From the NCBI GenBank assembly GCA_964535655.1, contig CAZHTP010000003.1, positions 131,396-195,395 on the forward strand: a DNA stretch of 64,000 nt. Reading direction: 5' to 3'. This stretch comes from an uncultured Gammaproteobacteria bacterium. Lineage in GTDB: Bacteria > Patescibacteriota > Microgenomatia > JALYQM01. The notes beneath the pieces were generated by a model, which ran no database searches, was not told the DNA's origin, and saw nothing but the letters and a program-made list of their open reading frames with translations. Of the stretch, positions 25,014 to 63,090 are shown piece by piece. Each line of letters opens with the position of its first letter. The first letter of the stretch is position 1. The position numbers and the translations under genes were made by a program.

Positions 25014-25085
25014 GTCCCCGTAGCTCAATGGATAGAGCAAGGGTTTCCTAAACCCTAGATGCAGGTTCGATTCCTACCGGGGATA
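25014..25085 (+). tRNA. tRNA-Arg (anticodon CCT)
   Basis: Hand-folded cloverleaf: acceptor GTCCCCG/CGGGGAT. D-arm GCTC-AATGGATA-GAGC. Anticodon arm AGGGT-TTCCTAA-ACCCT (anticodon CCT). T-arm GCAGG-TTCGATT-CCTAC (one mismatch). Discriminator A; CCA not encoded. Confidence 0.8.
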
Positions 25086-27311: not shown

Positions 27312-28928
27312 TTAGTATTGCGAGCCGATAATTCTAAAGACATCGGTCTTATTATCTGGTGTCCTGATTGTTTTAATACCTGGTTCACCTTCAGGAATTT
27401 CTAAATTTCCTCCTACTAACAAGGTTTTGTGAAGCAACCGATCCTGGGACCAATTTACCTTGCGAAATTCATATTTATCAAAGCCTTTATTGTACTCTCC
27501 GTTGTTTACCCATATTTTTGGATCATATTTTTTATAGTATAGAAAATAAATGTATGGTTGATCGTACGCAGGAGTAATAATCACTTTATCGTAATGAGGT
27601 TCAAGCATTGATACCGTTTTAACTAACTCACGATAACCCGTTTGCCATTCAAGCGCATATTCAAAATCCATTTGGGTGTAATACTGATTAAAATAATATA
27701 TGAGATTTATGCTATAGAGAATCAGGATTACAGCGATGGGATACACCATTTGTATTTTTTTATTTCGAACGTATTGAACTAATGCAAAGATTCCCACAGC
27801 AACAGCAATCTGCGGTATTGGTAAAAAAAGAATGCTGCGGATTGCGTGTGGAGTGCCTGTTGATATTGCTGCCGGAATTGGCGCAATGACCGCCCAAAAG
27901 AAATAGATAAATTTACTACTAAATTTGGCACGAATAAGCGCCATGATGCCGATAAGAATTAGCGGAAACTCAACTAAAAAGAATAAGCCAACATCGGGAG
28001 CATGGTGGCGTGCAACTACATCTCCTTTCAGGAACATATTGATCGGATTGAAATGATTTATATATCCTTCTGTAAATTCTTTAAGGTATTCAACTCGCCT
28101 GTTGTGTAAAAATGAATCCCAACGATTTAGTTGGTTATCCTGCCGTTCATATTCTAGCGGTCTTAATATTTCGGTGGACGGATTAAATATGCTTACTGAA
28201 GAGAATCTCTCGGCTGCTGTTCCGTGAAAGAGAACTACTACAAGCGGAAGAAGTATTATTATGCCAATCAAGGTTGGAATAATTATTTGTTTGGACCGCC
28301 TGAAAATTAATTTATGATATCTTAGCGCGATTCCTATAAGTACCAGTGGTACGATGAGACGCGCTGCGTGATAGGCATATAAAGAAGTGGCAAGAAGTAT
28401 TGCAGCTAAAGTAGCATCTCTCACTTTCTCAGATGAAAGCCACTTTAGTACGAAATACATTCCCCAGGTGACAAAAAAGACGGCAATATTTCCTTCAAAA
28501 GCAGCCCGGGAAAATTGCAGATGCCAAGGCGAAATGGCAAAAACTGACATTGAGAGTAACGCGATAGTTTCTTCGTGTGGAGAGAAACTCGATTTTCTAA
28601 AGAATTCGTAGGTAAGGAAATATACACCGAGAACTGTTAATGAACCAAAGAAAGCCGCAGGGAATCGAGTGCCGAATTCATTTAAGCCAAAAATTGCGGT
28701 GGGAATGATGTCTAGATAGGTATAGGCAGGCGGCTTGTAATCGTTGAATGAACGAATCGATAACGGCCAAGAATTGCCATACTCATCCGCTCCAGTTTGT
28801 AATAGTGTGTAGGCGTTGTAGCCAAGCGAGGCTTCGTCCCAATCAAGAGATGCGGGCACTGCCCCGAGTTTGTAAAAGCGCAGGAAAATGGCTAAGATGA
28901 AGATTGCACAGAATAAGTACTTTTTCAC
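27312..28928 (-). CDS. GT-C fold membrane glycosyltransferase, PMT_2 (GT39/GT83, ArnT/PMT-like) family, paralog 1
   Basis: FLRFYKLGAVPASLDWDEASLGYNAYTLLQTGADEYG (loop-1 DE motif). About 11 TM helices; C-terminal soluble domain. Confidence 0.75.
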   Translation of the reverse strand: MKKYLFCAIFILAIFLRFYKLGAVPASLDWDEASLGYNAYTLLQTGADEYGNSWPLSIRSFNDYKPPAYTYLDIIPTAIFGLNEFGTRFPAAFFGSLTVLGVYFLTYEFFRKSSFSPHEETIALLSMSVFAISPWHLQFSRAAFEGNIAVFFVTWGMYFVLKWLSSEKVRDATLAAILLATSLYAYHAARLIVPLVLIGIALRYHKLIFRRSKQIIIPTLIGIIILLPLVVVLFHGTAAERFSSVSIFNPSTEILRPLEYERQDNQLNRWDSFLHNRRVEYLKEFTEGYINHFNPINMFLKGDVVARHHAPDVGLFFLVEFPLILIGIMALIRAKFSSKFIYFFWAVIAPIPAAISTGTPHAIRSILFLPIPQIAVAVGIFALVQYVRNKKIQMVYPIAVILILYSINLIYYFNQYYTQMDFEYALEWQTGYRELVKTVSMLEPHYDKVIITPAYDQPYIYFLYYKKYDPKIWVNNGEYNKGFDKYEFRKVNWSQDRLLHKTLLVGGNLEIPEGEPGIKTIRTPDNKTDVFRIIGSQY

Positions 28929-31450: not shown

Positions 31451-33172
31451 TTAACTTTTAACTATATAGATAATTGGTTTACCTGATAAATCTAACATTT
31501 TTTCATCTGGTATAAGTTTTCCAGGAAAATCACTTGGTGATCCGATCATTAATGAATGAGGAATTTTACGCTGTTTTTCGTAATCGAAATTGTGGAATTT
31601 AATTTTTCCGACTCTGTTTTGGGTTTCTGAAAAGCCACCGCTCACTGTGCCCCCCTGAGAAAGATACTCTCGCGGGGAATAATTGCCATACCATAAGAAC
31701 CAGAGATATGACCAATCCAAGGAGAGTGACACCGTGATGCTATCGTAATTTTCTTTTTTGCTTTCAATAATTTGAACCGCTTCTTTTCTTCTATAGAGCC
31801 AGTACGCACTAAACTCCTTCGGAAGAAGGATAGTGTAAGAAATGAGATAGTGGATGACTGAAAATCCCATGACGATAAAAATTAAAAGAAATGAAACTTT
31901 AGGCCAGGTCCATTTAAGAAACTTATTAAACTTGTCATCACCGGTTTTTGCGGGAGGCCTGGTGTATGACTTAAGATCGTATCTTTGAATTTCTTTAATT
32001 ACAACCCACAAGCCTATTCCTGTTACTAATGAGAGAACCGGCAATAACAGTAAGGCACGGATTGAATGTGGTACTTGCCAGGTTAAGGCCGCTGGAATGG
32101 GAGCGATAAAACCTAGCCATAACGGAAGAAATGCATTTAATTGTTTTCTGTTGCGAATTAGGAACGTTATTCCGACTAGAATCAACGGTAATTGCCAAAC
32201 ATAAAGAAGCCCAAAACCTGGCACCTGGTGACGAGGTAGATCAGCAAAAACAAATAAGAAACTATAATTAAAATGCGATAAATAATTGGCCGTGACACTT
32301 TGCGCTATGGGAATACGGAAATTATGCACTTTTGAACTAAGCCATCCGTCACCGTTATCAAAATCTTCTTTAGCAAGCTTATTATTTCGAGCAAAAATTT
32401 CAATAACTTTCTTGCCTAAAATAGTAGTGGCGTTGTAGCGGGCTAGCCCGTCTCCCTGGTACATCTGTAGAAACAAAGGTATACACAGAAGTAACGCAAT
32501 AAACCCTCCGGCAATTATTTGCTTTTTAGCAGTTAGAAGTTCTCTTCCATAGGAAATCAGGTATCCTAGCAGGAAAAGTGGAATTAGGAGCCGAGCATTC
32601 GCATACGAATATAAGGCAAGTGTAAAGGCTACTACTGAGTACATTAGAGTTGTAAAATTTCTTTGTTGACTCCACTTTAATAGAAATAATATACCGGCTA
32701 ATTCCCAAAACAAAGCGATATTTGCTTCAAAAGCTACTCTGGAAAAATGGATATGCCAAGGGGAGATAGTTAGGATAGCGGCTGCAAATAGCGAAATATT
32801 GGCAATACGATTTTTCCAGATGGGAATGGTTGTTGTTGTGCGTAACATGTGTTGGCAGAGCAAATAAAATATCGGAATGGTTAACACTCCAAAAAAAGCC
32901 GAAGTAAACCTTATGGCAAATTCATTTTTTCCAAAAAGAAAAAGTGCTGCTGAGGTTAAATAAATATATAGTGGGGATTTATAATCATCGAATGAACGGA
33001 AAGTTAAGGGGAGATATGTCCCATATTCGTCTTTCCCAGTTTGTAGAATTGAATAGGCGTTCCAGCCAATTGCGACTTCATCCCAGTTTAGAGAAGGGGG
33101 ATTGCTTCCTAAGGCAATAAAACGAAAGAGCGCACCTAAAATAATGAGTATAATTAATAGCTTTAGACGCAT
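31451..33172 (-). CDS. GT-C membrane glycosyltransferase, PMT_2 family, paralog 2
   Basis: LFRFIALGSNPPSLNWDEVAIGWNAYSILQTGKDEYG. Confidence 0.75.
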   Translation of the reverse strand: MRLKLLIILIILGALFRFIALGSNPPSLNWDEVAIGWNAYSILQTGKDEYGTYLPLTFRSFDDYKSPLYIYLTSAALFLFGKNEFAIRFTSAFFGVLTIPIFYLLCQHMLRTTTTIPIWKNRIANISLFAAAILTISPWHIHFSRVAFEANIALFWELAGILFLLKWSQQRNFTTLMYSVVAFTLALYSYANARLLIPLFLLGYLISYGRELLTAKKQIIAGGFIALLLCIPLFLQMYQGDGLARYNATTILGKKVIEIFARNNKLAKEDFDNGDGWLSSKVHNFRIPIAQSVTANYLSHFNYSFLFVFADLPRHQVPGFGLLYVWQLPLILVGITFLIRNRKQLNAFLPLWLGFIAPIPAALTWQVPHSIRALLLLPVLSLVTGIGLWVVIKEIQRYDLKSYTRPPAKTGDDKFNKFLKWTWPKVSFLLIFIVMGFSVIHYLISYTILLPKEFSAYWLYRRKEAVQIIESKKENYDSITVSLSLDWSYLWFLWYGNYSPREYLSQGGTVSGGFSETQNRVGKIKFHNFDYEKQRKIPHSLMIGSPSDFPGKLIPDEKMLDLSGKPIIYIVKS

Positions 33173-33174
33173 AG

Positions 33175-34971
33175 TTACTTTACAAAAGGATTACCATTTT
33201 CATCGAGGTATCCCAACTCAATTAACGCATCAGCGCCGGTAGGAACTTTGCTTAGGATAAAAACCGGCTCGCCATTTAATCGGTTAATTGTCTCTTTGAA
33301 ATATTTTTTTGAAGTAAGTTCAGAAGGTGTCCCTACTAATAATACTTTCTCCCCTGCTTGCTGTTTGGAAATTTCGTTTCGCCAGTTAATTCCGCGAAAC
33401 TCGAATTTATTAAATCCGTCAACCGTGATGAATCCAAACCCAGTTTCGTCGGTGTGTGCTTTTCGTTCTTTTTGAAATAATGCTGGAGGATACTTTAAGT
33501 AAAATAGTGTTTCAATATACGGGCGTCCCTGACCATCAGTTATAATGATACGGTCGTACTGATCTTTTACCTTAGCTACTTCACTGATCATCTCTTTATA
33601 ACCATATTGCCACTCCTGAGAAGTCCAGTTTGAGTAATGAACATAATAATTATGTAAATAGTAATAGACTGTGGAAGTAAGTATTACTCCAGAAAAAATA
33701 ACCACTAAAAGTGAGCTTACTGTAAAATTACTCACTTTTTTATTGAGCACAGGCCAACCCCACTGCATTTTATTTAAACGATTGATTACATAAATGAAGG
33801 CATAGGCTTCAATGATTTGAAAAGTTGGTAAAATATTTAGACTTCGCAGTGCATGGGGAGTTTCCCTTGCAAAAGCCGCTGGAACTGGTGCTAAAAACAT
33901 CCAACCAAGAATAACTAGCTGTTCTGGCTTACGCCGGGAAAGGAATAGATACAGACCAATAAGTAAGAAAGGTAGCTCAATAATATACAATTCTCCTACA
34001 TCCTGGAGAGAAAAGCGCGGGTTTATATCTCCCGAAATAAATAAGAATTTTCCGGAAAAATGCTGAAAATAACCGTCAATCCAATTTTGAGCATAAATCA
34101 TGCGGCGATTATTTAAAATTTTAGCCCACCAGGTGTTACCTAAGTGCGCAATCCTTTCGTTGGACAGTTCGACAGGAAGAGGATCAGAAAAGATATTAAC
34201 CTCTTTGTATCGTAATTGGCCCTCGTGTGATGCTACATGTGGTACCAGAGGCAAAAGAATTGCCAAGGATATCAAGCTGGCAACAAGAAGTTTTAGCGTG
34301 CTTTTTTTATCATTAAATAACTGCTTACGGTAGATTATTGCCAGAAGAATGACCATGAGGGGTGTAAAGACGCGATTAGAATTGAAAGTGTAAAAGGTTG
34401 ATACAAACGAGATACCCGAAAGGACTAATAATAACGCTTTGTAATTTTCATTTTCAAGCGACTTAAAGAATAAGTAGATTCCCAGTAGTACTAGAAATAA
34501 CGCTACGTTAGCTTCATAGGCAACGCGAGATATCTGGGTATGCCACGGTGAGATAGCAAAGAGAAAGGCTGCAAGTAAAGCAATCCATTCAATTGTATTT
34601 TTGTGTAAGAATGTGGGCTCGTGACTGGCTAGCCTTTTAAGTAGTTGCAGTGTTATTAGGTAGGCTACTATAACTGAAAGCGACCCGAAAAAAGCTGAAG
34701 GAAACCGGGTAGTCCATTCGTTCAGCCCGAAGAGTTTAATCATTGGCACTTCGGAGTAAATATACACTGGAGGCTTAAAGTCTCCAAATGAACGAAAATA
34801 CTGGATTGGCATGAAGGCGCCTTCTTCATCCCGTGCGGTTTCGGAGATTGAATAGGCATTATAGCCAAGGGCTACCTCGTCCCAATACAGGGATGGAGGA
34901 TTAATTCCAAGATGATAAAACCTTAAAACGAAGGCGATACCAATAATTATGATTAAGAGAATTTTTTTCAT
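33175..34971 (-). CDS. GT-C membrane glycosyltransferase, PMT_2 family, paralog 3
   Basis: VLRFYHLGINPPSLYWDEVALGYNAYSISETARDEEG. Confidence 0.75.
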   Translation of the reverse strand: MKKILLIIIIGIAFVLRFYHLGINPPSLYWDEVALGYNAYSISETARDEEGAFMPIQYFRSFGDFKPPVYIYSEVPMIKLFGLNEWTTRFPSAFFGSLSVIVAYLITLQLLKRLASHEPTFLHKNTIEWIALLAAFLFAISPWHTQISRVAYEANVALFLVLLGIYLFFKSLENENYKALLLVLSGISFVSTFYTFNSNRVFTPLMVILLAIIYRKQLFNDKKSTLKLLVASLISLAILLPLVPHVASHEGQLRYKEVNIFSDPLPVELSNERIAHLGNTWWAKILNNRRMIYAQNWIDGYFQHFSGKFLFISGDINPRFSLQDVGELYIIELPFLLIGLYLFLSRRKPEQLVILGWMFLAPVPAAFARETPHALRSLNILPTFQIIEAYAFIYVINRLNKMQWGWPVLNKKVSNFTVSSLLVVIFSGVILTSTVYYYLHNYYVHYSNWTSQEWQYGYKEMISEVAKVKDQYDRIIITDGQGRPYIETLFYLKYPPALFQKERKAHTDETGFGFITVDGFNKFEFRGINWRNEISKQQAGEKVLLVGTPSELTSKKYFKETINRLNGEPVFILSKVPTGADALIELGYLDENGNPFVK

Positions 34972-51054: not shown

Positions 51055-51690
51055 ATGGTGTATAATAGGCGCATGAAGCCTGCGAGCAAACAGAATGAAA
51101 TGCGTCATGAACCAATACAAGCTCGAAGTGCTCAACGAGTTGCCCATATCCTGGACGTGGCTTCAAAGTTAATTTCCGAAGTAGGATATGACCGAGCAAC
51201 CACTAATGATATTGCTAAACTGGCCGGGGTTCCTATTGGGTCACTTTACCAGTATTTTCCCAATAAACATGCCCTTTTGCATGCGCTTTCAACTCGATAC
51301 CTATCGCAACTAAGAGATTATTTTGTTGAGCAAAAGATCATTACTGATTCTATTCAATTGCATGAGTTTCTTTCTTCTATTATTGATACTTTAGTGGAAT
51401 TTAGGAAGAGCCACAGAAGCTTTAAACAAATGTTCCTTGGAATATATATGAACAACGAAGTGTCTATTGCAGCAAAAACAATGAATGAGGAATTCCGGCA
51501 AATAATATTGAAGAAATTAGAAATAGAGAAGCCTGAGTTAAGTGCAAAGCGGCGCGAGCGAGTTAGTTATGTGTTGTTTGGAATGATTCGTTCGGTATTT
51601 GTGTATCTTTCAGTTATTGATGACACGATGTGGAAAGAAATGAAAGAAGAGACTAAATTCGCAATACGAACGTATCTTTCTGCTGTTTAA
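51055..51690 (+). CDS. TetR-family transcriptional regulator
   Basis: HTH TTNDIAKLAGVPIGSLYQYFPNKHALL. Confidence 0.75.
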   Translation: MVYNRRMKPASKQNEMRHEPIQARSAQRVAHILDVASKLISEVGYDRATTNDIAKLAGVPIGSLYQYFPNKHALLHALSTRYLSQLRDYFVEQKIITDSIQLHEFLSSIIDTLVEFRKSHRSFKQMFLGIYMNNEVSIAAKTMNEEFRQIILKKLEIEKPELSAKRRERVSYVLFGMIRSVFVYLSVIDDTMWKEMKEETKFAIRTYLSAV

Positions 51691-51711: not shown

Positions 51712-54700
51712 TTACTCTTTCCTGAATTTTCTTTTTAATCCTTCCCATATATTTTTAGTTGTATTTGCATTTATTTTTATGGCAGCAATTATTAAACCTA
51801 AGCAAAGTACCACACTGGCAACACTTACAACAGCTTTTATTTTTGAACTTTGACTATTGGCAGGTAAACCAATCCAAGTAGAATTATTTTCTACTCGTAC
51901 TGGGTCTTTGCTGATAGTAATTGTTTCAGCAACTGATCTTCCATAAACTTCCGGAGCGTACATGAGTGAGGCAGTGGCAGGTGGCACTGAAAAGTTTCCT
52001 TCCGATACTACTCGAGCTTTGTAGGTAAACTTATTTTTCCCGGCAGTAATATTGTACACATTAAAAATTATGCCATTGAGCGTCATTTCTCGATCAGAAT
52101 TGTACATTGGGTTGTACGAATAAAGATCTTCTTCACGAGAAGCTACTCCTTGTTCGTTAAGGAATCGCTCGTTAATAGGCACCATCCCCGCTGGTAATTC
52201 ATCTTGTACAACGGCATAATTATTTTCACTGTTTATACCACTTACTGCTATTGTTACTCGAACGATATCCCCCGGTTTAAAAGAATATCCTGGGTTTGTC
52301 ACATTAGTATATGTTCTACCGACTGTTAAGGGATGGTTTACAGCTTTTGCATTTTGATCGGTATGATATTGATCGGCAACGAGCGTTGCATACATTGGCC
52401 CATTATTTTCAGCTTTAATTTCAATCTGCGGTACTGAATCCTTAAGTGGAATATTAATATCCTTAATTTTTTGAGCAGGGCTAGAAATTGTTCCACTGGC
52501 TACTACTTTATTATCTACTAGCACCGAATATCCATACTCAGAATTGGTTGTATTTTCGTATTGAGAAAAATCCGACAAAGCTCGGATAATCTGTGCTGTG
52601 GCAAAGGTGTTGGACCAATAATAATTGTTTCTTGTTTGCGTTAAGTACCTTACTGCTTTAGTCACTATGGAGGTGTCCCCTTTTGCTGTAAGAATGGCAT
52701 GAATAGCCATAGCTGTTGATGCATTGATTGAGCCAAAATGCTTTTTATCTCCAGCTGCCCAGAATAAGGAGTCTCCTTGCTGCTTGGCACTCGCGTAGAG
52801 CGAATTTAGTCCGTTGGTTTGAGGATTGGTGAATCCGTTTAAGGTATTGGCGAGTACTCCAAGGGCAATAATATCTGGGGTTTGAGACTGGAAATTGTAT
52901 TGGGTTAGTTCGCCCTTATTTTTTGTTGCTCCGGCAACAGTACTTGCATAGGTCTTAGATATCGTTTGATCAATGGTATATGGAATGTCTACAACTTTTC
53001 CAATAATTGAATCATAATAATTGGTTCCGGTAGAATCTAAGAAATATTTTGCCTTAGTGAGCATCGTGTCATCAACCGTAACCCCCAGTTGCTTTGCTTT
53101 CATGAGATATTCTATTACATACCCGGTGACAAAATAATCTGGTTTTGAATCGTACCACCAACTCCATCCTCCATTTGCAAGTTGAAGCATCTCTAAACGT
53201 GTTACACCTTTTGCCAGAATATCGTCGATGTCTTTACCTTCTAATGCATCTTTAAATAAGGCAGGATTAGACTTAGCAATTACTGCTGGGACAAATCTAC
53301 TTGTGGTCTGCTCAACGCAACCATACGGATAGTCTATTAGGTATTTGGCGCCACTTGGTACTGTTCCTACTAGACTTGGGGAAAGAGACAGGGTTAGCTT
53401 TGACTTACTTACATCTAAATCTTTTCCTAATACCGGAGTTAGTTTCCCTGGACTATTTGCAATTTGGCCGGTTTTTTCCAGAAAACTAAATGCTTGAACT
53501 GGAATTTCTGAAATTATTGTGTCGCTCAATTCTGCATTGTTTTTTTGGATTGCAGAGAATGTTAATTTGGATTTAAGATTCTCTTTATCTGGAGAAACTT
53601 CCCAGAAAAATTCTTTTCGTTCGTTAGCAAGTAGCGTTTGTTCTGGATACATTGCCTTAGTAAGTGACCCGGAATCGAAGCTTAACCCAACATCAACTGT
53701 TTGGGGCGCGTCGGTAAAGTTTTCGACAAACGCAGCAAGAACGGCTTTGTCACCTACACGCAAAATATTGGGTACAATGGGTCGTACTACAATGTCTTTG
53801 GTTACTCTTATTTCGGCAGTAGATTGCCCAACTTTTGCATCGTCGGTATTGCTTACTGCCGCTACGACCCAAGTTGTTAAATTATCTGGTAATTTAAAGG
53901 AAACTTTTGCTTTACCAGTACTGTCGGTATAAATACGAGGGTTCCAATAGGCAGTATCTTTAAATACGCTTCGTACCGACCCGCCGTCACCTTTTTGATT
54001 ATGTACCCAAATATTGTTGGCAAAAAATGTATGATATTTCTCGACTTCGAGATTATATACATCTTGCGTGCTAGCTTGGTATTCAATGGAGTTTACTATC
54101 TCTGTACTTCCGTCGGAATGAACTAGCGTATCGCCAATAGTGATACTACCTGCTGGTTTCCATGAAGTATTAACTGCAACAATGTGATCGGGGGTAACAT
54201 ACAAATTACTATTTAGAATTATTAAATCAGTGTCTTTAGCGATGTGCGTGGCTGTTACTTGTGCTGCAATAAGTTGCTTATCTGTAGGGCTAACTCGTGT
54301 CAAAATTTTATCGCCTGCTTTGATATCTTCAATATTCCTGGTCTGACCATTGGCCATTAATACTTTTGTACCTTTGGCAAAACATCCACCGCCACCCCCA
54401 AAAGGGTCACTGATAATTCCTTCGAGTGAGTGATCAGTTCGCGTTGCATCGTATCTTTCTGACCAGAACGTACTGTGGATATCTCCAAGTGTTGAAGTAC
54501 TTAATTCGAAGATTGCCTTATCCACGCTCCACAGCGCAGTCTCAGCGGCTATAGGTGTTCCCCTATAATCTGTCGTTTGGACAGTTACACTGACTGTATC
54601 TCCTGGACCATAGCTTTGGCGATCGGGAAGTACTTTGACCATGACTTTTTTAACAGCGGTATTAAGTGGGATTTTTATTCTGCTGTTGTTTAGATCATTG

Positions 54701-56838
54701 AGATTAAAGCTTAGCGCCTCAAGATACAGATTAGGTAAATCGGAGTCCTGGAGGGGAAGCTCAACATTTGCGGATGTTCCATTGAGGTGTACCACTTGAT
54801 ACCGATGTACATACTTTCTCTGAAAAGATAAGAATACGTCACGATCGGGAATTTTTGATGTAATAGCAAGCTGAACCGTGTCTGTTGGAAGATATTTCTC
54901 TTTATCTATACTTAGCGTTAGATTTTGTTCTGATGAGTTTTCCGTGTATATTGGTTCACCTTCTTTTCGAGCGTAATAATAAAATGAATTTGTTACATTG
55001 TTTCCGCGTGCGTCCTGGGTTGAAACGCCGATAGTATATGATCCACTTTTATTGGGTGTGAAATTGATACTGGCTTTGCCATTGCTATCTGAGATGGTTG
55101 ATGTCATAGGATAATCTTCGCTATCTTTTCGAAAGGAAGTATATTTTTTATCTGGTTCCTGATAAGGAATCCAAGTTTCACGATGGATGCGAACTATTAA
55201 CTTTATTCCACTTACTGTTCCGTTACCAATATGTTTGGCTAAAATGACTGGTAGTGATACCGGTGAATTAACCGTCGTGCTGTACGAATTATCTGTTCGA
55301 TAGATGCCGAATTCTCCGGGATAGACGAGTACATTTTTTCGCGCGAACGTAGAGGGCTGAGTTTTATCTGCGAGGCTTACTTCTATTCCAAATATTTTAC
55401 TTTTTCCGTCCGTAATTTGCCCTTTAGTTGCAACCGCTACTTTTGACTCACCATTTGCATCAAGCTTTGAAGTACTCTTTAGGATATCTTTACCTGACCA
55501 ATATCCGTACCGGTACGTGCTGTCTACATTACTGCCGGCATCAGAATAATAGCTGTAATCCCCGTAATCTGAAGCATTGATTTTATAATTAAGTAATTCT
55601 TTGGATAGTGGTTGTCCTGAAAAAAATAATCCTTTTAAGGTGAATGCTACGGTATCTCCTTGAATAAGTTCGGTAATGGGAGCTGCGATATCTAAGAAAT
55701 ATTCTGGTTTTTTGTAGAAATCTACTTGAATTGGAGTGCTACTTTCGTAATTGTAGGTGGTGTGATCGGTGCTTAATGACACCGAGACCATATAGTCTCC
55801 CGTTGCTACGTTTTTTGGTAGAGGGATTTGACCGAATACTGCACCTCTATCAACTGGGAAGATTTTATCGAAAACTGGGCTTTCCTCACTGTACGATTTT
55901 GTAATTTTTACTCGAGCTGTCCCCGTAGAGGCGGAATACATGGCATCATCATCATCGCGAATAATTGCCTTAAAATTGACCGCATCACCCGGTTTATATA
56001 ATGGTCTATCGGTAAAAACAAAATATTTTGTTGTTGGCTGTGATTTACTATATGAAATATAATTATAGTTCAGATTAAGATATTGCATGTTTAATGGGAT
56101 TAACGCGACATCGCCATCCACTTCAGCAAGGGCAATATCTGCGCCCGGAGTAATCTCAGCCTTCCCTACGCCTGAACTATCGAAGGTGCCACTTGAAGAT
56201 ACCGCTATTTGGTCTTTTAGGTTGTAGACTTTGATCGTCCCTGAATTTATACTCCGCTTAGTTTTAAAGCTTTGCCCCCAGAATAAGAACTCGTTCTTAG
56301 AATCTTTTACCGTTACTCCATATGTTGAACGTACAATCATTGCATCATGAAAGATATTCCCTGAGATGATGCGTACAAAATAAATCCCTCTCTCCGCTAA
56401 AGGAAGACTAACTTTTGTTCCATTTGTAAGATCCTGAGAGAAATTACTGATACGATTTAACTGTGATACGTCGGAGGTCGGATTTAATTGATTGGAATCT
56501 TTATCGTGGGTAAGATATTTTAATAGATAGTTTGTATCCGCCTCGTAGACAGAAATTTCTACCGACTTTTGGTTAGTTTGATCATTGATACTGATTGCTG
56601 GCTCCTGCGTGGAGTTCATTGATATTACCGAACCGCCAGAGAATTTACTTTTCTCAGCGGGAATCGTGACAGTATCGACGCGGCTTTCCCCCCACCAGCC
56701 TAAGACACTACTGCGAATGTAGAAGATGTTAAGTGCCGAGCAAGTAGCGAGCATAATTGCAAGCGCGGCTAGTGCTCCTGAAGTGTACAAAAGTGACTTA
56801 TTTGTCCATTTATTTTTGCGTGTTTTTCCTTTAACCAT
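51712..56838 (-). CDS. alpha-2-macroglobulin-family thioester-containing protein (1708 aa), membrane anchored, carrying an inserted Hint domain
   Basis: Thioester motif DYPYGCVEQTTSRF (Cys codon 53317-53319, ~residue 1174). N-terminal signal-anchor/lipobox-like IMLATC. C-terminal TM plus basic tail. Long beta-rich MG-like N-terminal region. Embedded Hint domain (separate feature). Confidence 0.75.
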   Translation of the reverse strand: MVKGKTRKNKWTNKSLLYTSGALAALAIMLATCSALNIFYIRSSVLGWWGESRVDTVTIPAEKSKFSGGSVISMNSTQEPAISINDQTNQKSVEISVYEADTNYLLKYLTHDKDSNQLNPTSDVSQLNRISNFSQDLTNGTKVSLPLAERGIYFVRIISGNIFHDAMIVRSTYGVTVKDSKNEFLFWGQSFKTKRSINSGTIKVYNLKDQIAVSSSGTFDSSGVGKAEITPGADIALAEVDGDVALIPLNMQYLNLNYNYISYSKSQPTTKYFVFTDRPLYKPGDAVNFKAIIRDDDDAMYSASTGTARVKITKSYSEESPVFDKIFPVDRGAVFGQIPLPKNVATGDYMVSVSLSTDHTTYNYESSTPIQVDFYKKPEYFLDIAAPITELIQGDTVAFTLKGLFFSGQPLSKELLNYKINASDYGDYSYYSDAGSNVDSTYRYGYWSGKDILKSTSKLDANGESKVAVATKGQITDGKSKIFGIEVSLADKTQPSTFARKNVLVYPGEFGIYRTDNSYSTTVNSPVSLPVILAKHIGNGTVSGIKLIVRIHRETWIPYQEPDKKYTSFRKDSEDYPMTSTISDSNGKASINFTPNKSGSYTIGVSTQDARGNNVTNSFYYYARKEGEPIYTENSSEQNLTLSIDKEKYLPTDTVQLAITSKIPDRDVFLSFQRKYVHRYQVVHLNGTSANVELPLQDSDLPNLYLEALSFNLNDLNNSRIKIPLNTAVKKVMVKVLPDRQSYGPGDTVSVTVQTTDYRGTPIAAETALWSVDKAIFELSTSTLGDIHSTFWSERYDATRTDHSLEGIISDPFGGGGGCFAKGTKVLMANGQTRNIEDIKAGDKILTRVSPTDKQLIAAQVTATHIAKDTDLIILNSNLYVTPDHIVAVNTSWKPAGSITIGDTLVHSDGSTEIVNSIEYQASTQDVYNLEVEKYHTFFANNIWVHNQKGDGGSVRSVFKDTAYWNPRIYTDSTGKAKVSFKLPDNLTTWVVAAVSNTDDAKVGQSTAEIRVTKDIVVRPIVPNILRVGDKAVLAAFVENFTDAPQTVDVGLSFDSGSLTKAMYPEQTLLANERKEFFWEVSPDKENLKSKLTFSAIQKNNAELSDTIISEIPVQAFSFLEKTGQIANSPGKLTPVLGKDLDVSKSKLTLSLSPSLVGTVPSGAKYLIDYPYGCVEQTTSRFVPAVIAKSNPALFKDALEGKDIDDILAKGVTRLEMLQLANGGWSWWYDSKPDYFVTGYVIEYLMKAKQLGVTVDDTMLTKAKYFLDSTGTNYYDSIIGKVVDIPYTIDQTISKTYASTVAGATKNKGELTQYNFQSQTPDIIALGVLANTLNGFTNPQTNGLNSLYASAKQQGDSLFWAAGDKKHFGSINASTAMAIHAILTAKGDTSIVTKAVRYLTQTRNNYYWSNTFATAQIIRALSDFSQYENTTNSEYGYSVLVDNKVVASGTISSPAQKIKDINIPLKDSVPQIEIKAENNGPMYATLVADQYHTDQNAKAVNHPLTVGRTYTNVTNPGYSFKPGDIVRVTIAVSGINSENNYAVVQDELPAGMVPINERFLNEQGVASREEDLYSYNPMYNSDREMTLNGIIFNVYNITAGKNKFTYKARVVSEGNFSVPPATASLMYAPEVYGRSVAETITISKDPVRVENNSTWIGLPANSQSSKIKAVVSVASVVLCLGLIIAAIKINANTTKNIWEGLKRKFRKE
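53998..54384 (-). other. Hint (Hedgehog/intein-like, BIL-type) autoprocessing domain, ~129 aa, embedded in the A2M-like ORF (residues ~819-947)
   Basis: Starts with GGGGG-CFAKGTKV (a G|CF junction as in Hedgehog/intein block A). Ends ...FANNIWVHN-Q (intein block G hVHN; +1 residue is Gln, not Cys/Ser/Thr). Mini-intein size. Confidence 0.65.
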
Positions 56839-56888: not shown

Positions 56889-57647
56889 TTATTGCGGTGA
56901 TGCTCCGAAGAATCTGGCAATTTGAAATGCTATAAGTGCCGCACCAATGCCAATGGCGACCATCTGGATTCCTTGTTTTTTCCAATCTCCAACGAGCGTT
57001 ATAGCTTGATACGCCCCTACCCCAAATAGAGCTAGCGAGCTTATTCCTAAAGAGGTATAAAAAGCTGGTCCGTCTGTAAAAAAGAAATAGGGGAAAAGTG
57101 GAATTAACGAACCAATAATCGCTGCAAAACCAACGATAACAGACGTTTTTAATACATCTTTGATTTCAACTTTCTCTAAATGCAACTCTTCTTGCATCAT
57201 TGTGTCCAACCAGACATGCTCATTGGAGGTTATTTTTTCGACGACTTTTTCTAATAATTCGCCCTCAAAACCTTTAGCAATGTAAATATCCCGAATCTCT
57301 TGTTTTTCAATTTCAGGGAAATTTTTTATTTCATCGATCTCTCTTTGGCGTTCTTTAACATAATGATCTCTCTCAGATAAAAAGGAGGTATAGGCTACTG
57401 CAGCCATCGAAATTGATTCGGCGAATGCTGCGGCAAGCCCTGCAGCAATGAGAATTCTTTTATCTTCGGTTGCTGCGGCGACTCCTAAAACTACGCCAAG
57501 GACGTTAACAAGGCCGTCCTGACCTCCGAGTATTACATCGCGTAAGGCCGTTGAAGATTTATGTTGTTCAGGATGCGTTGGTGCTATTTTTGTCATGGGT
57601 TCATTATATACCGCTTGAGCGATGGTTATTGCAAGTAAGTAAATCAC
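56889..57647 (-). CDS. VIT1/CCC1-family iron/manganese transporter
   Basis: LRDVILGGQDGLVNVLGVVLGVAAAT and a C-terminal TM cluster. Confidence 0.7.
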   Translation of the reverse strand: MIYLLAITIAQAVYNEPMTKIAPTHPEQHKSSTALRDVILGGQDGLVNVLGVVLGVAAATEDKRILIAAGLAAAFAESISMAAVAYTSFLSERDHYVKERQREIDEIKNFPEIEKQEIRDIYIAKGFEGELLEKVVEKITSNEHVWLDTMMQEELHLEKVEIKDVLKTSVIVGFAAIIGSLIPLFPYFFFTDGPAFYTSLGISSLALFGVGAYQAITLVGDWKKQGIQMVAIGIGAALIAFQIARFFGASPQ

Positions 57648-57657
57648 CGATTATGCT

Positions 57658-59508
57658 ATGGGCATGAAAAAACCACTTATGCTTTTTATAACGCTTTTTA
57701 TGCTTGTCTTTCCTGGCACGGTTGAAGCGAAAAGTTATTATTTTCCTTCAGTTTCAATCGAAGCACATATTAATCGCGACCGAAGTATGGATGTAGTGGA
57801 AACTAGGACTGCATATTTTGACGGTACATATCACAATATATATTGGGATATGCCGTTTACTGTTTTCAAAAAACCGAATTCAGTATCTCTTTCAGAAGTA
57901 CGATCTGGTAGCGAAATTCCCTATGTTGACAAAGTTGGCGATGTTAGCCCTGGAACTTTTTCAGTAACTCGAGGTGCTGATATTCTTCATATAGAGGGAC
58001 ATTACGAAGCATACAATGAACAAAAGCAGTTTATACTTCATTACTCTGTCGAAGGCGCGGCCTCAAAATATGATGATGTCGGTGAATTGTACTGGAAAAT
58101 GATTGGCGACGGCTGGGGAGTAAAAACCAATTCAGTAACCGTACGTGTTTACTTACCTGAAAGTGTAGCGGCAAATCAGATATACGTATGGGGACATGGA
58201 CCACTAAATGCTCAAGCAAAGATTATTGACGGACAGATGACTGAATTTACTTCAACTGGACTTCCTGCCAATACTTTTTTTGAAATCCGCGAGCTATTTC
58301 CATCTACTTTACTTGATGGTACTGCGCAATCTGGTCAGCATTTAGAAACTATTATAGCTGAAGAAAAAGCCTTTCAGGATAAAACTACATTTCAAGCCTG
58401 GCTTGTGATAATTGGTATTTTGTCTTTGATAGGTATTCTGCTGGCATGGGGGGTGGGGTGGTATTTCCTATGGCTTAAATATGGCAAGGAATATAGCGCG
58501 AGTGATGTTCCTGAGCATGTAACTTTCCCGCCTAGTAAGCTTGCTCCTGCACTTGTTCAGCAGTTAGTAAATCAAGGGACAGCAGTTGATACTAATGCTT
58601 TTTCAGCAACCATACTTGACCTTGCAAGGCGCGGATTTATTAAAATTGAAGAATCACCGTATACTAAGGAATCTTTTTTACATTTAAATGACACTACCGC
58701 ATTTCGTTATACCTTACATGAACAGGAAGATGCAGTTGAAAAAAGCAGGAATGAATTTTATCCATTTGAACATTCCTTACTTGGGTATATTTTTATGCGA
58801 GGTCCGGTTGTAGATATGGATACGATTCAAAAAGAGATGAAAGATGATCCCCGGGCAACTAAAGCTTTCTTTGATTCATGGAAGAAAATGGTTGAGGATT
58901 CGTCAGATCAAAATGCGTTTATTGAACCGCAGAGCAAAAATGTGCGGATGATTTTTTCAGTTTCAACAGTTGCGCTTATACTAGTAGTTATTTTTCTGTT
59001 TTTCTGGAAATCATTACTTGCATCGGGTGCGATCTTTCATTTTCTATTGTTTGGAGCATTCCTAGTATCTGTACCGGTGGGTTTTATTGGCAAGCTTTTC
59101 TTGCGCTGGGATAAGGTGTCGCGAAGGGAGGCTGCTGAGTGGACAGGGTTTTCTAATTATTTACGTGATTTTGGTCATTTTAAAGATACGGTTCCCCAGG
59201 CAGTGATCATTTGGGAAGACTTTTTGGTATACGGCACAGCTTTGGGGTTAGCGCAAAAAGTCTCAGGATATTTGCCTATGATTCTTGCTGCTGATCCACA
59301 AGCCGTGCATCCGGTCTGGTTTTATTCAAGTGCTGGCTCTAGTGGTGGTTCAATTGGAGATTTTAATGCTAATTTTGCGACAAGCATTTCGAATAGCTTT
59401 GGCTCTTTTTCTACCGCTATGAATTCTTCCTTCAGTACTGGTTCGGGAGGAGGATTCTCGGGTGGTGGAGGTGGCGGCGGCGGCGGTGGTGGTGGTGGCG
59501 CGAGTTAG
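57658..59508 (+). CDS. DUF2207-like membrane protein with C-terminal poly-glycine tail
   Basis: Signal peptide, extracytoplasmic domain, TM helices. The C-terminus FSGGGGGGGGGGGGGAS is typical of DUF2207 proteins. Confidence 0.5.
   Translation: MGMKKPLMLFITLFMLVFPGTVEAKSYYFPSVSIEAHINRDRSMDVVETRTAYFDGTYHNIYWDMPFTVFKKPNSVSLSEVRSGSEIPYVDKVGDVSPGTFSVTRGADILHIEGHYEAYNEQKQFILHYSVEGAASKYDDVGELYWKMIGDGWGVKTNSVTVRVYLPESVAANQIYVWGHGPLNAQAKIIDGQMTEFTSTGLPANTFFEIRELFPSTLLDGTAQSGQHLETIIAEEKAFQDKTTFQAWLVIIGILSLIGILLAWGVGWYFLWLKYGKEYSASDVPEHVTFPPSKLAPALVQQLVNQGTAVDTNAFSATILDLARRGFIKIEESPYTKESFLHLNDTTAFRYTLHEQEDAVEKSRNEFYPFEHSLLGYIFMRGPVVDMDTIQKEMKDDPRATKAFFDSWKKMVEDSSDQNAFIEPQSKNVRMIFSVSTVALILVVIFLFFWKSLLASGAIFHFLLFGAFLVSVPVGFIGKLFLRWDKVSRREAAEWTGFSNYLRDFGHFKDTVPQAVIIWEDFLVYGTALGLAQKVSGYLPMILAADPQAVHPVWFYSSAGSSGGSIGDFNANFATSISNSFGSFSTAMNSSFSTGSGGGFSGGGGGGGGGGGGGAS
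59461..59499 (+). repeat. (GGN)13 glycine-codon microsatellite
   Basis: ggtggtggaggtggcggcggcggcggtggtggtggtggc, encoding 13 consecutive Gly. Confidence 0.8.
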
Positions 59509-60823: not shown

Positions 60824-61402
60824 TTAAGATATTTTAATATCTAAACTGCGGAGTAAGGATAGAGCTTCAGGAATGGTAAAGGTGGCTTTGGCAATTTTAT
60901 TTACCTTAAAGTCGATGGCATAATTTGACGCGTTGGTAAAATCTGCTTTGTTGAGATTAGTATTATGGAAGGTGCTCTTTTCTAAATTGGTGTGCTTAAA
61001 ACTCGCTTCGTGGAGATCGGCATTAGTGAAATCTGTTTCTATAATTGTTGAATTTTCAGCAATAAATTTCTGAGTTTTACATTCAAAAAAACTGCAATAG
61101 GAAAGTGTACAGTTATTGAATGAAAGATAGTCTAAACTATCTGCATCAGTGAAGACTATTCCGGTTAATTTAACGTTTGTCATTGTTGTATCGCGAAAGA
61201 CAGTATTGGGTAGCTTGCAGTTTAAAAACTGGCAGTTAGTGAACCTACAGGTATCCAGGCGGCAACGATGCATTGATGTTTCACTAAAAATACACTTATC
61301 GAAGGAACATTTTTCAAAGGTGACGTCATCATATTCTTCATTTTCAAGCTGGATATCTTTAAATTTAGTGTCGTAATATTCTGATTTATCGAAGAAATTC
61401 AT
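60824..61402 (-). CDS. pentapeptide-repeat protein (Qnr/MfpA-like fold)
   Basis: Tandem A(D/N)LxX-type pentapeptides: ADLHEASFKHTNLEKSTFHNTNLNKADFTNAS etc.; Cys-rich N-terminal half. Confidence 0.7.
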   Translation of the reverse strand: MNFFDKSEYYDTKFKDIQLENEEYDDVTFEKCSFDKCIFSETSMHRCRLDTCRFTNCQFLNCKLPNTVFRDTTMTNVKLTGIVFTDADSLDYLSFNNCTLSYCSFFECKTQKFIAENSTIIETDFTNADLHEASFKHTNLEKSTFHNTNLNKADFTNASNYAIDFKVNKIAKATFTIPEALSLLRSLDIKIS

Positions 61403-63090
61403 AAGGTATCTGCTCCCTCACCAATAATTTTTTCGTTTCTTGAGAAAAAGAACATTGTCGGATTGCGGATTTCATTTTCAAATCCAACAAATAATATTTT
61501 CCGACCTTGTTCAGTATTTTTTTGCACTGATGAAATATCTTTGGTGAAATAGAATTTCCCAAATTGGCTCGTAAAATTTAATCCGTTTTGGTCCGGTGTA
61601 TGATTGGTTACCGATTGTGACTGGAAGACTTGAGGATCATAACGCATAAACCACGCATAAAAAATGTACATTGGAGCTTTGGAACTTGAAACTATTATCT
61701 GATCGTACTTATTTTGACTCTCAAAAGCATACTGCACTTCATACTTAATACCATCATTCCATTTTTCTGCAACATAGTGTGGAGTAACTGTAAAATATTG
61801 GTTGTAAAAATACCCAACATTAATAAGCACGAGTACCGATGCAATGGGAATTAGTATGACTGACATTTTTCGTCGAGGGAATTTTTCTTGAAACCATTGG
61901 TAGGCCACAAGGCTTCCGTACGCTGCAATAATTACTAAAGGAATAACCATGTTTTGAGCTCGTGAGATGCTGGGAGTGAAAATGGTAAAGGCCGAAGCAA
62001 CTGGACTGATTAAGAGCCAGCTTAGAATTAACCATATCCAGGGTGGTCTATTTTTTATACATGCATACATGCCTATGAGTGTTACGGGAAGTAATATCAA
62101 TGGGAGAAAACCAATTCCAATAATCTGAAAGATTTCAAACACATCGCCAATAACAAAAAGAAAATTAAAATCAAAGTGTGAGAGATAGCGTTTTGCATAA
62201 TCCATAAAATAGAATAAGGGTTTATTATGCAGAAACTGAGTTATTTTAACGGGTTGGCATGAATCGGAACGAATAGCGTCAAATAGCCTGGCATCTACGC
62301 CCTTGTCATAAAAAATACTAATATATTTAGCTCGTTGCGTTACTTCGGGGGTTCGAATGGCTTTTAGAATGGGTAGACAAAAGATAAACGCGAGAACCAA
62401 ACTTAAGCAAATAGTTATGAGCGTGGCCCGAGACTGCAATTGTTTCATAATTTCTTTGCGATAGATACCAATTAGACTGAGTCCAAATAACGGAACGAAA
62501 ACCCGCGCGGAGTTATATGCATAGAGAGAAAGAGCGAATGAAGTTACAGCTAACACATAGTATCCGCGAGAAAAAGCGGAACCTATTTTGGCATGAATGG
62601 CTTTTAGAAAAAATACGGTACCAATAGTTATATAAAATAAGGCTGGAGTAAGTTCCCATGTTCCTCGTGAGACAAAAATGTGGGCTGGGGTTATTGCTAA
62701 AAATAAGGCCGCTAGTAAAGAAAGATAGTCGTTTTCTTTTTCCCTTCTTAGCTCACGCATGAGTAAATATACTGCGACAATTGTACCTGTACCATACAAA
62801 ACTCCTGGTAAACGTGCGGTCCATTCGGATGCTCCAAACAACGCAAATGAGCCGACAATTGAATAGAGCATGACTGGTAATTTGAAATCTCCGAAGGCCT
62901 CTGCGGTTATAGGTAAAAAGACTCCGTGTTCGTCTTTACCGGTTTTTAAAATAGAGTAGGCGTTATAGGCGTAGCTTGCTTCATCGGAATAAAATCCGGG
63001 AGGATTGGCCTGTAATTGGTGCACTCTTAAGAAAAACCCAAGACAAACAGTTGCGACAAGTGGGTATATTTTGTTTTTCATTCTTGCCAT
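61399..63090 (-). CDS. GT-C membrane glycosyltransferase, PMT_2 family, paralog 6
   Basis: FFLRVHQLQANPPGFYSDEASYAYNAYSILKTGKDEHG. Confidence 0.7.
   Translation of the reverse strand: MARMKNKIYPLVATVCLGFFLRVHQLQANPPGFYSDEASYAYNAYSILKTGKDEHGVFLPITAEAFGDFKLPVMLYSIVGSFALFGASEWTARLPGVLYGTGTIVAVYLLMRELRREKENDYLSLLAALFLAITPAHIFVSRGTWELTPALFYITIGTVFFLKAIHAKIGSAFSRGYYVLAVTSFALSLYAYNSARVFVPLFGLSLIGIYRKEIMKQLQSRATLITICLSLVLAFIFCLPILKAIRTPEVTQRAKYISIFYDKGVDARLFDAIRSDSCQPVKITQFLHNKPLFYFMDYAKRYLSHFDFNFLFVIGDVFEIFQIIGIGFLPLILLPVTLIGMYACIKNRPPWIWLILSWLLISPVASAFTIFTPSISRAQNMVIPLVIIAAYGSLVAYQWFQEKFPRRKMSVILIPIASVLVLINVGYFYNQYFTVTPHYVAEKWNDGIKYEVQYAFESQNKYDQIIVSSSKAPMYIFYAWFMRYDPQVFQSQSVTNHTPDQNGLNFTSQFGKFYFTKDISSVQKNTEQGRKILFVGFENEIRNPTMFFFSRNEKIIGEGADTL

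Follow-up and report, generated by a model that had tools for sequence, protein, structure and literature searches.

We analyzed a 64,000-nucleotide stretch of contig CAZHTP010000003.1 (GenBank assembly GCA_964535655.1, positions 131,396 to 195,395; hereafter the window). Its minus strand carries a complete alpha-2-macroglobulin (A2M)-family open reading frame (ORF) of 1708 amino acids, with a 129-residue Hint domain embedded in the loop where a protease bait would lie. Minus-strand positions 53998-54384 translate to CFAKGTKV...NNIWVHN, preceded by GGGGG and followed by QKGDGG, which agrees exactly with the segment GGGGG/CFAKGTKV...NNIWVHN/Q (slashes mark junctions) that had been picked out from the letters in the original prediction. 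The plus strand over the same interval, which we also considered, is full of stop codons, so the Hint feature is on the minus strand. The features of the ORF, in the order of the protein, are:

51712..56838, minus strand: complete A2M-family ORF of 1708 amino acids, host of the Hint domain (ORF list, translation, Pfam)
56719..56790, minus strand: N-terminal hydrophobic segment, residues ~17-40, signal anchor or signal peptide (hydropathy scan)
54502..54921, minus strand: A2M_BRD, the bait-region domain (PF07703), residues 640-779, directly upstream of the bait loop (Pfam, 3.3e-11)
54385..54432, minus strand: N-side bait-loop linker, residues 803-818 (HSLEGIISDPFGGGGG), ending in the invariant Gly at -1 (predicted local distance difference test (pLDDT), homologs)
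53998..54384, minus strand: mini Hint domain, like type-A bacterial intein-like (BIL) domains, residues 819-947, 129 amino acids without an endonuclease insert (Pfam, NCBIfam, AlphaFold2, Foldseek)
54382..54384, minus strand: Cys819, Hint residue 1, predicted nucleophile of the N-S acyl shift (invariance in homologs)
54184..54195, minus strand: block B motif T882-P-D-H885 (TxxH) (invariance in homologs)
53998..54003, minus strand: His946-Asn947, the terminal HN of block G and predicted Asn-cyclization site (invariance; NCBIfam intein_Cterm)
53959..53997, minus strand: C-side bait-loop linker, residues 948-960 (QKGDGGSVRSVFK), with Gln948 at +1, invariant Lys949 at +2 and invariant Arg956 (pLDDT, homologs)
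53689..53955, minus strand: A2M domain (PF00207), the macroglobulin (MG) domain after the bait, residues 962-1050 (Pfam, 2.8e-19)
53308..53322, minus strand: thioester motif G-C-V-E-Q, residues 1173-1177 with Cys1174, inside the TED_complement match (sequence)
51949..52296, minus strand: bMG10, the bacterial A2M MG10 domain (C-terminal MG), residues 1515-1630 (Pfam, 8.8e-20)
51769..51834, minus strand: C-terminal transmembrane anchor, residues ~1669-1690 (hydropathy 2.8 over 19 residues)

The host has the layout of a type I (thioester) bacterial A2M, with a ring of MG domains, a bait-region domain, CxEQ within the TED and a C-terminal bMG10. Pfam placed MG2 (271-371), A2M_BRD (640-779, spanning profile positions 1-140 of 140), A2M (962-1050), TED_complement (from 1158) and bMG10 (1515-1630) in this order, each above its cut-off, with the Hint domain between A2M_BRD and A2M. 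A PDB sequence search with the ORF returned E. coli A2M (ECAM) and Salmonella A2M on top. The GCVEQ motif begins at residue 1173, as expected from the original placement at about 1174, and aligns to the CLEQ of ECAM at 1187. To follow these features across the family, we used a word-indexed search that found 415 relatives at E<=1e-10, of which the best 120 are listed; 116 of these 120 keep GCxEQ. Among 117 full-length homologs, the N-terminal hydrophobic segment is present in 112, the C-terminal one in 107 and both in 103, and a lipobox in none. Only four Cys occur in the 1708-residue protein: two in the terminal anchors, plus the Hint nucleophile C819 and the thioester C1174. Exactly two ectodomain Cys are found in 97 of the 117 homologs.

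We then examined the identity of the insert. The 129 residues alone matched Pfam PT-HINT (1.3e-12), Hom_end_hint (4e-11), Vint (1e-9) and Hint_2, all above curated cut-offs, and NCBIfam intein_Cterm, whose cut-off is 15.6, scored 26 bits. In a phmmer search of the PDB, the pretoxin-HINT of UmbC1 (8W20, 2.7e-11) and a Clostridium thermocellum BIL domain (2LWY, 3.9e-11) came first, with RecA mini-inteins next. AlphaFold2 modeling on 64 homologs gave an all-beta domain (mean pLDDT 89, core 93-98) with disordered flanks. With this model, Foldseek found 65 PDB Hint structures at E<=1e-3, including BIL domains, mini-inteins and Hedgehog 1AT0. The top matches were Tetrahymena BUBL BIL2 (6Y75/6TMM; E 4e-11, template modeling score 0.82) and the C. 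thermocellum BIL domain 2LWY (31% identity, root-mean-square deviation 1.7 Å); BIL domains rank ahead of DnaB and RecA mini-inteins, and Hedgehog structures appear only at about ranks 28-29. The Hint beta-fold with neighboring N and C termini, Cys (or Ser) at position 1 and the TxxH of block B are the marks of the HINT superfamily. The originally proposed Hint fold therefore holds up against profile matches, model and structure search, although the known type-A BIL class had not been recognized there. Judged by profiles and model, residues 819-947 are a real Hint-fold domain of the type-A BIL/pretoxin-HINT class with all predicted catalytic residues present. No second Hint copy was found elsewhere in the 64-kb window.

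We also mapped the location of this domain within the host. Cys1174 lies 227 residues after N947 and 355 after C819, matching the initial estimate of 225-355 residues, and the mapped domain order sets the insert between A2M_BRD and A2M. A model of residues 600-1165 (566 residues) was confident (pLDDT 87), and its top PDB fold matches are native ECAM (5A42) and Salmonella A2M (4U48). In it, A2M_BRD forms confident beta-sandwiches followed by short helices at 774-779 and 787-791. After these two helices come the only internal disordered stretches of the model, residues 803-816 and 950-960 (pLDDT <50), which flank the Hint domain. Thus, the Hint domain is predicted to be carried, bead-like, by a flexible loop that connects MG domains, and a disordered loop is present where a protease-cleavable bait is expected.

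To place the insertion point on a solved A2M, we built a family hidden Markov model (HMM) from 114 members with the Hint domain removed and aligned it to E. coli YfhM/ECAM (our L002; thioester at 1187). The alignment (5e-79) covers residues 194-1649 and is firmly anchored at AVDSGVLNI (ECAM 895-903) and VTLNEQGEGSV (~975), the PF00207 domain aligning from about residue 975 on. Between these firm anchors, the insertion point falls opposite ECAM G949/D950, a match that is approximate at the level of single residues. In protease-cleaved ECAM, the bait segment R923-L942 is disordered and protease-cut, R956, G958 and N963 dock onto the C-terminal MG domain, and bait cutting activates the thioester (PMC4498604). 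The match to human A2M starts at query residue 945, close to chain residue 695, consistent with a bait position; C4 and C5 align to residues 954-1253 of the ORF. Profile order, predicted disorder and the ECAM alignment thus uphold the original proposal that the Hint domain sits at the bait-region position. By sequence and model it lies within the mapped bait region of ECAM, with firm bracketing on both sides.

We next considered how well the domain is conserved. Homologs both with and without the insert were recovered, as the original prediction had proposed to seek. PT-HINT appears among the precomputed Pfam domains of nearly all of the best 120 relatives, which are labeled Daviesbacteria, Woesebacteria, Gottesmanbacteria, Moraniibacteriota or 'Patescibacteria group' and share 34-58% full-length identity with the ORF. 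A Hint domain of 125-129 residues is present in 108 of 116 aligned homologs. All 108 share Gly at -1 (G818), Cys1, Thr882 and His885 of block B, His946-Asn947 of block G, Val927 and Asn929 of block F, Lys949 at +2, and Arg956. The +1 residue is Gln in 52, Asp in 23, Glu in 22, Gly in 7 and Asn in 3, with one alignment gap, and never Cys, Ser or Thr. In an independent set of 52 genome loci, Gly -1 is kept in 51 and TxxH in 52; 60 further A2M-hosted representatives all have Cys1 and the same junction pattern, with Ser at +1 in two.

Type-A BIL domains end in His-Asn as in intein block G and lack Cys, Ser or Thr at +1 (PMC4031507). Invariant catalytic residues next to a non-nucleophilic +1 residue are therefore the signature of a type-A BIL domain and, at the level of sequence, argue that self-processing is under selection. 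The Gln at +1 had been taken to mean that splicing is not expected. Its non-nucleophilic character extends to all 108 homologs; the absence of splicing does not follow, since type-A BIL domains are documented to ligate without a +1 nucleophile (PMC4031507).

At least 54 GTDB species representatives carry the Hint-A2M arrangement, mostly labeled Patescibacteria and including WWE3, Shapirobacteria, Pacebacteria, Magasanikbacteria, Parcubacteria, Peribacteria and Saccharibacteria. Several metagenome-assembled genomes (MAGs) with the arrangement (L004, L005, L007, L008, L013, L022, L023, L032, L037 and others) bear labels outside the Candidate Phyla Radiation (CPR), namely Gammaproteobacteria, Pseudomonadales, Bdellovibrionales, Micavibrio, Nevskiaceae and Methanoperedens. 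Their Hint-A2M proteins are about 50% identical to CPR ones, with locus GC of 28-46%; these labels may be unreliable or the contigs mis-binned.

A few C-terminal flanks depart from the common form. One Peribacteria MAG (L046) reads HN/CKGGGDC, where +1 is the canonical Cys and a second Cys follows, and two others (L051, L054) read HN/QC..KG..C after a Hint domain of 134 residues, with extra Cys pairs in the C-flank and the KG motif kept. These variants may form disulfide-bonded loops or mark a return to intein-like splicing. A pattern search had hinted that Lys+2 is swapped for Cys in some lineages; alignment shows instead that the KG motif is retained after a three-residue insertion.

The history of the insert is that of a resident. 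The GC content of the Hint region equals that of the rest of the gene, and pairwise Hint identity tracks that of the host flanks (Spearman rho 0.70; means of 54% for Hint and 51% for flank). Host-like GC and co-divergence argue that the domain is an old, vertically inherited resident rather than a mobile intein. Seven close relatives lack it (P0075, P0080, P0085, P0093, P0104, P0113, P0116) and read AE-GGGG-GG-xx-R-FKDTAYWNP at the site. The AE-GGGG linker is common to both forms, and the Hint domain and its +1/+2 'xK' are cleanly absent, the equivalent of Lys949 being missing from all Hint-less relatives. The predicted ligated product (E-GGG-xKG-xx-R) would have a loop of 8-10 residues, and Hint-less proteins have one of 8-11. 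As these relatives show, the host evidently can function without the insert.

In a neighbor-joining (NJ) tree with 59 bootstrap replicates, Hint-less forms are scattered over some six positions within the Hint-bearing clade; a deep branch (P0117) carries the domain and the outgroup (P0119) does not. Fitch parsimony over the 59 bootstraps requires 5-7 state changes, so that on these NJ trees a single gain with monophyletic Hint-less forms is rejected. As one of these changes is the basal gain, about 4-6 clean losses follow. In the DNA, Gly-codon repeats flank the insert (ggtggcggtgga, then tgt...aat, then caaaaaggtgacggcggg) and could mediate such deletions. As part of the explanation that we favor below, and with the same middling confidence that we give to it jointly, the Hint domain was recruited once into the A2M bait loop and then passed vertically across CPR/Patescibacteria.

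We next asked where else this type of domain occurs. The 129 residues were scored against 1.84 billion 50%-identity representatives, yielding 9372 matches at E<=1e-3 and 1406 at E<=1e-10. Among the best 150 of the 9372, A2M proteins account for about 70, each with one copy; the other 80 hosts are unrelated, contain 1-9 copies, mostly in tandem, and also bear type-IV-pilin N-methylation signals or PKD, Laminin_G_3, CARDB or MopE domains. Junctions in the tandem arrays read G/C...HN/K-G(GG)/C.... Lys stands at +1 in 70 and at +2 in 31 of 132 non-A2M junctions (101 together), which rules out Lys+2 as an A2M-specific feature. The signature G/C...HN/(x)K-G is thus a hallmark of the BIL subfamily and not special to A2M, and the A2M Hint domain, whose nearest non-A2M relatives share its junctions, has been recruited from an already known class of domains. 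The near-universal Lys after HN hints at a shared, uncharacterized role for this residue. Some proteins of the representative set (P0122, P0124, P0125, P0127, P0131) carry 2-13 tandem related BIL copies with only K-G(GG) linkers in between, joined to pilin-type N-methylation signals or PKD, Laminin_G_3, CARDB, MopE or Tim44-like domains.

Comparison with characterized Hint families sharpened the assignment. Type-A BIL domains, for example C. thermocellum BIL4 (2LWY), share with the A2M Hint domain the mini Hint fold, N-terminal Cys, TxxH and C-terminal HN, the lack of both a +1 Cys, Ser or Thr and an endonuclease, and a place in secreted or surface bacterial proteins. Published BIL domains lie in hypervariable parts of secreted bacterial proteins that are not conserved, often in multiple copies (PMC7765530). 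The A2M Hint domain, by contrast, is a single copy at a fixed site, the bait loop of a conserved multi-domain host with which it co-evolves across a super-phylum. It has the C-terminal HN and the non-nucleophilic +1 residue of type-A BIL domains, and departs from them in that its host, which is exported and membrane-anchored, is neither hypervariable nor non-conserved.

The top structural match, BUBL1 BIL2 of Tetrahymena thermophila (6Y75/6TMM), has the same Gly-rich/Cys N-junction, and a lysine epsilon-amine resolves its thioester, so that an isopeptide forms (PMC8616854); the A2M Hint domain has an invariant Lys two residues past its end as a candidate for this role. BUBL BIL2 differs in being eukaryotic and cytosolic and in lying between ubiquitin-like domains, which it conjugates to targets; identity is about 25%. 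PT-HINT (PF07591), as in Streptomyces UmbC1 (8W20; PMC11062931), is the top Pfam and PDB sequence match and shares the secreted context and C-terminal HN. However, PT-HINT lies directly ahead of a C-terminal toxin domain whose release is attributed to it, whereas the A2M Hint domain is internal and is followed by 760 residues of A2M (MG, CUB, TED, MG10 and transmembrane anchor).

Several other assignments were considered and set aside. The PF07591 profile does match, but a pretoxin module of a polymorphic toxin is contradicted by the A2M, TED and bMG10 domains downstream and by the neighboring TetR, NUDIX and VIT1 genes. Against a canonical class 1 intein stand Gln948 at +1, the absence of Cys, Ser or Thr there in all 108 homologs, the lack of an endonuclease in only 129 residues and the host GC, as well as the disordered Gly-rich loop site and co-divergence with the host; such inteins use the +1 residue for trans-esterification, occupy conserved functional sites of housekeeping proteins and are spread sporadically by homing. 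A Hedgehog-type Hog/Hint domain shares the G/CF junction, but Pfam Hint (PF01079) scores below cut-off, the segment ends in HN and there is no sterol-recognition region.

On the host side, ECAM/YfhM and Salmonella SaA2M (5A42, 4RTD, 4U48) have the same domain order, CxEQ, bMG10 and a bait loop between BRD and the next MG domain. ECAM is a lipoprotein paired with pbpC (adjacent to yfhM in E. coli) and has no Hint domain in its bait loop. The window A2M, in contrast, lacks a lipobox, has transmembrane segments at both ends and no pbpC neighbor, and carries the Hint domain in its bait loop. Hence, neither part of the ECAM arrangement was found: no lipobox in 117 homologs, and no pbpC within 10 kb of the ORF.

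In complement C3, C4 and C5, the equivalent loop between the halves of MG6 holds an anaphylatoxin (ANA) domain and a furin site. Cutting of this loop during maturation yields a native protein of two chains, which is activated once the inserted domain is removed. The ANA domain has an unrelated helical fold and is cut by external proteases (furin, convertases) rather than by itself, so that the likeness to the A2M Hint domain would be positional only. A full-text literature search found no Hint, intein, BIL or pretoxin domain described in a macroglobulin, in line with the original remark that no description of a Hint-containing A2M was known. The architecture is implicit in database domain annotations, yet appears undescribed. 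Both component classes are known; what is new is a BIL domain in a functionally loaded context or, equally, an A2M whose bait contains an autoprocessing insert.

Drawing on sequence, model and analogy, we favor with moderate confidence the following whole: an intact, endonuclease-free, BIL-type Hint domain sits in the bait loop and excises itself, and the two halves are most likely re-joined. This builds on the fold, the bait position and the invariance of all residues needed for both junction reactions, which stand as observed. After export and folding, Cys819 would attack the Gly818 carbonyl to form a thioester, aided by T882 and H885. Asn947, aided by His946, would cyclize and cut the C-terminal junction, and the 14-kDa module would thereby remove itself, as its conserved catalytic residues suggest. 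With no Cys, Ser or Thr after the Hint domain, we propose that an amine in cis attacks and thereby resolves the thioester. BIL precedents offer two candidates, the alpha-amine of residue 948 (the type-A BIL route) and the epsilon-amine of invariant Lys949 (the BUBL-BIL2 route). Type-A BIL domains ligate through the freed alpha-amine, without a +1 nucleophile (PMC4031507). Either route would re-join the halves into a short Gly-rich bait (...GGG-QKG...R956), of the length found in Hint-less relatives, and the mature protein would then be an ordinary protease-triggered thioester trap. Some molecules may hydrolyze to a two-chain form instead. We favor re-joining because the TED thioester motif is kept in 116 of 120 homologs, because a bait cut discharges the trap in ECAM, and because the loop of Hint-less relatives equals the predicted ligated product.

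Several points weigh against this explanation. Reviews differ over the ligation efficiency of type-A BIL domains, cleavage products being dominant according to one (PMC4031507) and ligation being impossible according to another (PMC7765530). Gly at -1 leaves the thioester prone to hydrolysis, favoring a two-chain product, and catalytic invariance would be expected just as much if selection acted for cleavage without ligation. Posterior probabilities are low within the loop of the ECAM alignment. We infer excision, and above all ligation, from sequence and from analogy with BIL precedents, and the part given to Lys949 is conjecture.

In the closest competitor, the functional idea of the original prediction, the Hint domain would cut one or both junctions without re-joining them, or slow or conditional cyclization of Asn947 would trigger the trap with no protease attack; we regard this as possible, if clearly a minority view. 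The two-chain form would resemble C3/C4, whose loop carries a furin site and the ANA domain, and the halves would be held by their shared MG domain and the two membrane anchors. The residues for N- and C-cleavage are all invariant and a +1 nucleophile is absent, Gly -1 favors thioester hydrolysis, and anchors at both ends in 103 of 117 homologs would keep both chains tethered. The C-junction also lies nine residues before invariant R956, near the ECAM R956 that docks after cleavage, and cleavage products are reported as dominant in type-A BIL domains (PMC4031507; PMC7765530). Yet bait cutting activates the thioester in ECAM (PMC4498604), so constitutive cleavage would discharge the trap early, and the motif is kept in 116 of 120. 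Within the Hint-bearing clade, some relatives have only a plain Gly-rich loop, so a chain break is not required; that dual anchors and Hint-less forms both occur also counts against it. A related proposal, which we hold only tentatively and think unlikely, makes the Hint domain a functional autocatalytic bait whose self-cleavage is more than a silent step of maturation, with Asn947 as a slow or conditional timer or with the Gly818 thioester transferred to Lys949 or an external amine. If so, maturation could be C3/C4-like and two-chain or isopeptide-branched, or the TED thioester could fire without a protease, and a thioester protein would be under the control of a second, Hint-generated thioester.

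The insert might instead be a passenger, a selfish or neutral self-removing BIL domain that brings A2M no benefit and persists because imprecise loss is harmful. A clean presence/absence module with 5-7 state changes and an intact Hint-less loop would suit such an element, as would flanking Gly-codon repeats able to mediate deletion and the scatter of the same subfamily and junctions, in 1-9 copies, through unrelated secreted proteins. But it lacks a homing endonuclease (125-129 residues), has the GC of its host and diverges with it (rho 0.70), and has stayed in place in 108 of the 116 homologs in the alignment, as well as in no fewer than 54 species representatives from many CPR lineages. A disordered Gly-rich loop should tolerate imprecise deletion, so long retention argues for some benefit, and we doubt that the domain is a mere passenger. 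Transfer of the Gly818-Cys819 thioester to an external amine (a Lys of a captured protease or of a protein on a host-cell surface, or a cell-wall amine) would equip A2M with another chemistry for covalent capture or anchoring. BUBL BIL2, which is the nearest solved fold, does conjugate its N-extein to target lysines from a Gly-Gly/Cys junction (PMC8616854), Gly -1 is invariant and the only two ectodomain Cys are both thioester-forming. This is nonetheless quite improbable, as the in-cis Lys and the alpha-amine freed at HN are much closer nucleophiles and strict HN conservation is needless for simple N-extein transfer. Finally, some Hint domains are degenerate, and with its +1 nucleophile absent this one could have ceased self-processing and now serve as an enlarged bait or binding module. 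Catalytic residues invariant in 108 of 108 homologs and in two further sets are unexpected for a purely structural domain and make this the least credible reading.

To our knowledge, every member of the A2M superfamily (A2M, C3/C4/C5, TEPs, ECAM) is believed to become armed when a protease from outside cuts a single exposed loop. In the present case, a putatively self-processing Hint domain is retained in that loop, with invariant catalytic residues, across a large radiation of uncultured bacteria. Should it merely splice out, we know of no earlier BIL-type domain that has settled permanently at one defined functional position within a conserved protein, and it would offer protein engineering a natural, compact (129-residue) extracellular module that ligates without a nucleophile. 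Cleavage without ligation, or under some condition, would be a new maturation step or trigger for a thioester trap and a bacterial parallel to the processing of complement by furin and convertases. Hint-A2M also brings a concrete surface-protein mechanism into the biology of the CPR cell envelope, which is still poorly understood.

The surroundings of the gene were surveyed as well. Near A2M lie genes for VIT1, a DUF2207 membrane protein, TetR, NUDIX and PMT-type glycosyltransferases, with no toxin or immunity gene near the ORF. The VIT1 gene (vacuolar iron transporter-like, 56889-57647, minus strand) lies 50 nucleotides upstream of A2M on the same strand. The TetR gene (51055-51690, plus strand) is convergent and downstream, and the DUF2207 membrane protein (616 residues, 57658-59508, plus strand) is divergent from the VIT1-A2M pair. 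The order VIT1-A2M-TetR-NUDIX recurs in the closest relative (L058, GCA_964403585.1, on a 1.57-Mb contig; 58% identity), which has one additional desaturase gene between VIT1 and A2M. A functional link is not evident from this synteny, the only one found when we looked for an operon linking A2M to pbpC or another partner.

Elsewhere in the window, the only Rfam match at the gathering threshold is a single tRNA gene (25014-25085, plus strand). Envelope-glycosylation genes are found on the minus strand at 27312-28928, 31451-33172, 33175-34971 and 61399-63090, and also at 7053-10103 and 21610-22962; the window includes several paralogous PMT/PMT_2 (GT-C, protein-mannosyltransferase-like) membrane proteins, a GT2 fusion (1016 residues) and a Polysacc_synt flippase. 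This richness suggests heavy surface glycosylation around the A2M locus. A 944-residue protein (16846-19680, minus strand) combines fn3 with a C-terminal CBM60, a Ca-dependent xylan-binding module, and is possibly a surface carbohydrate-binding protein.

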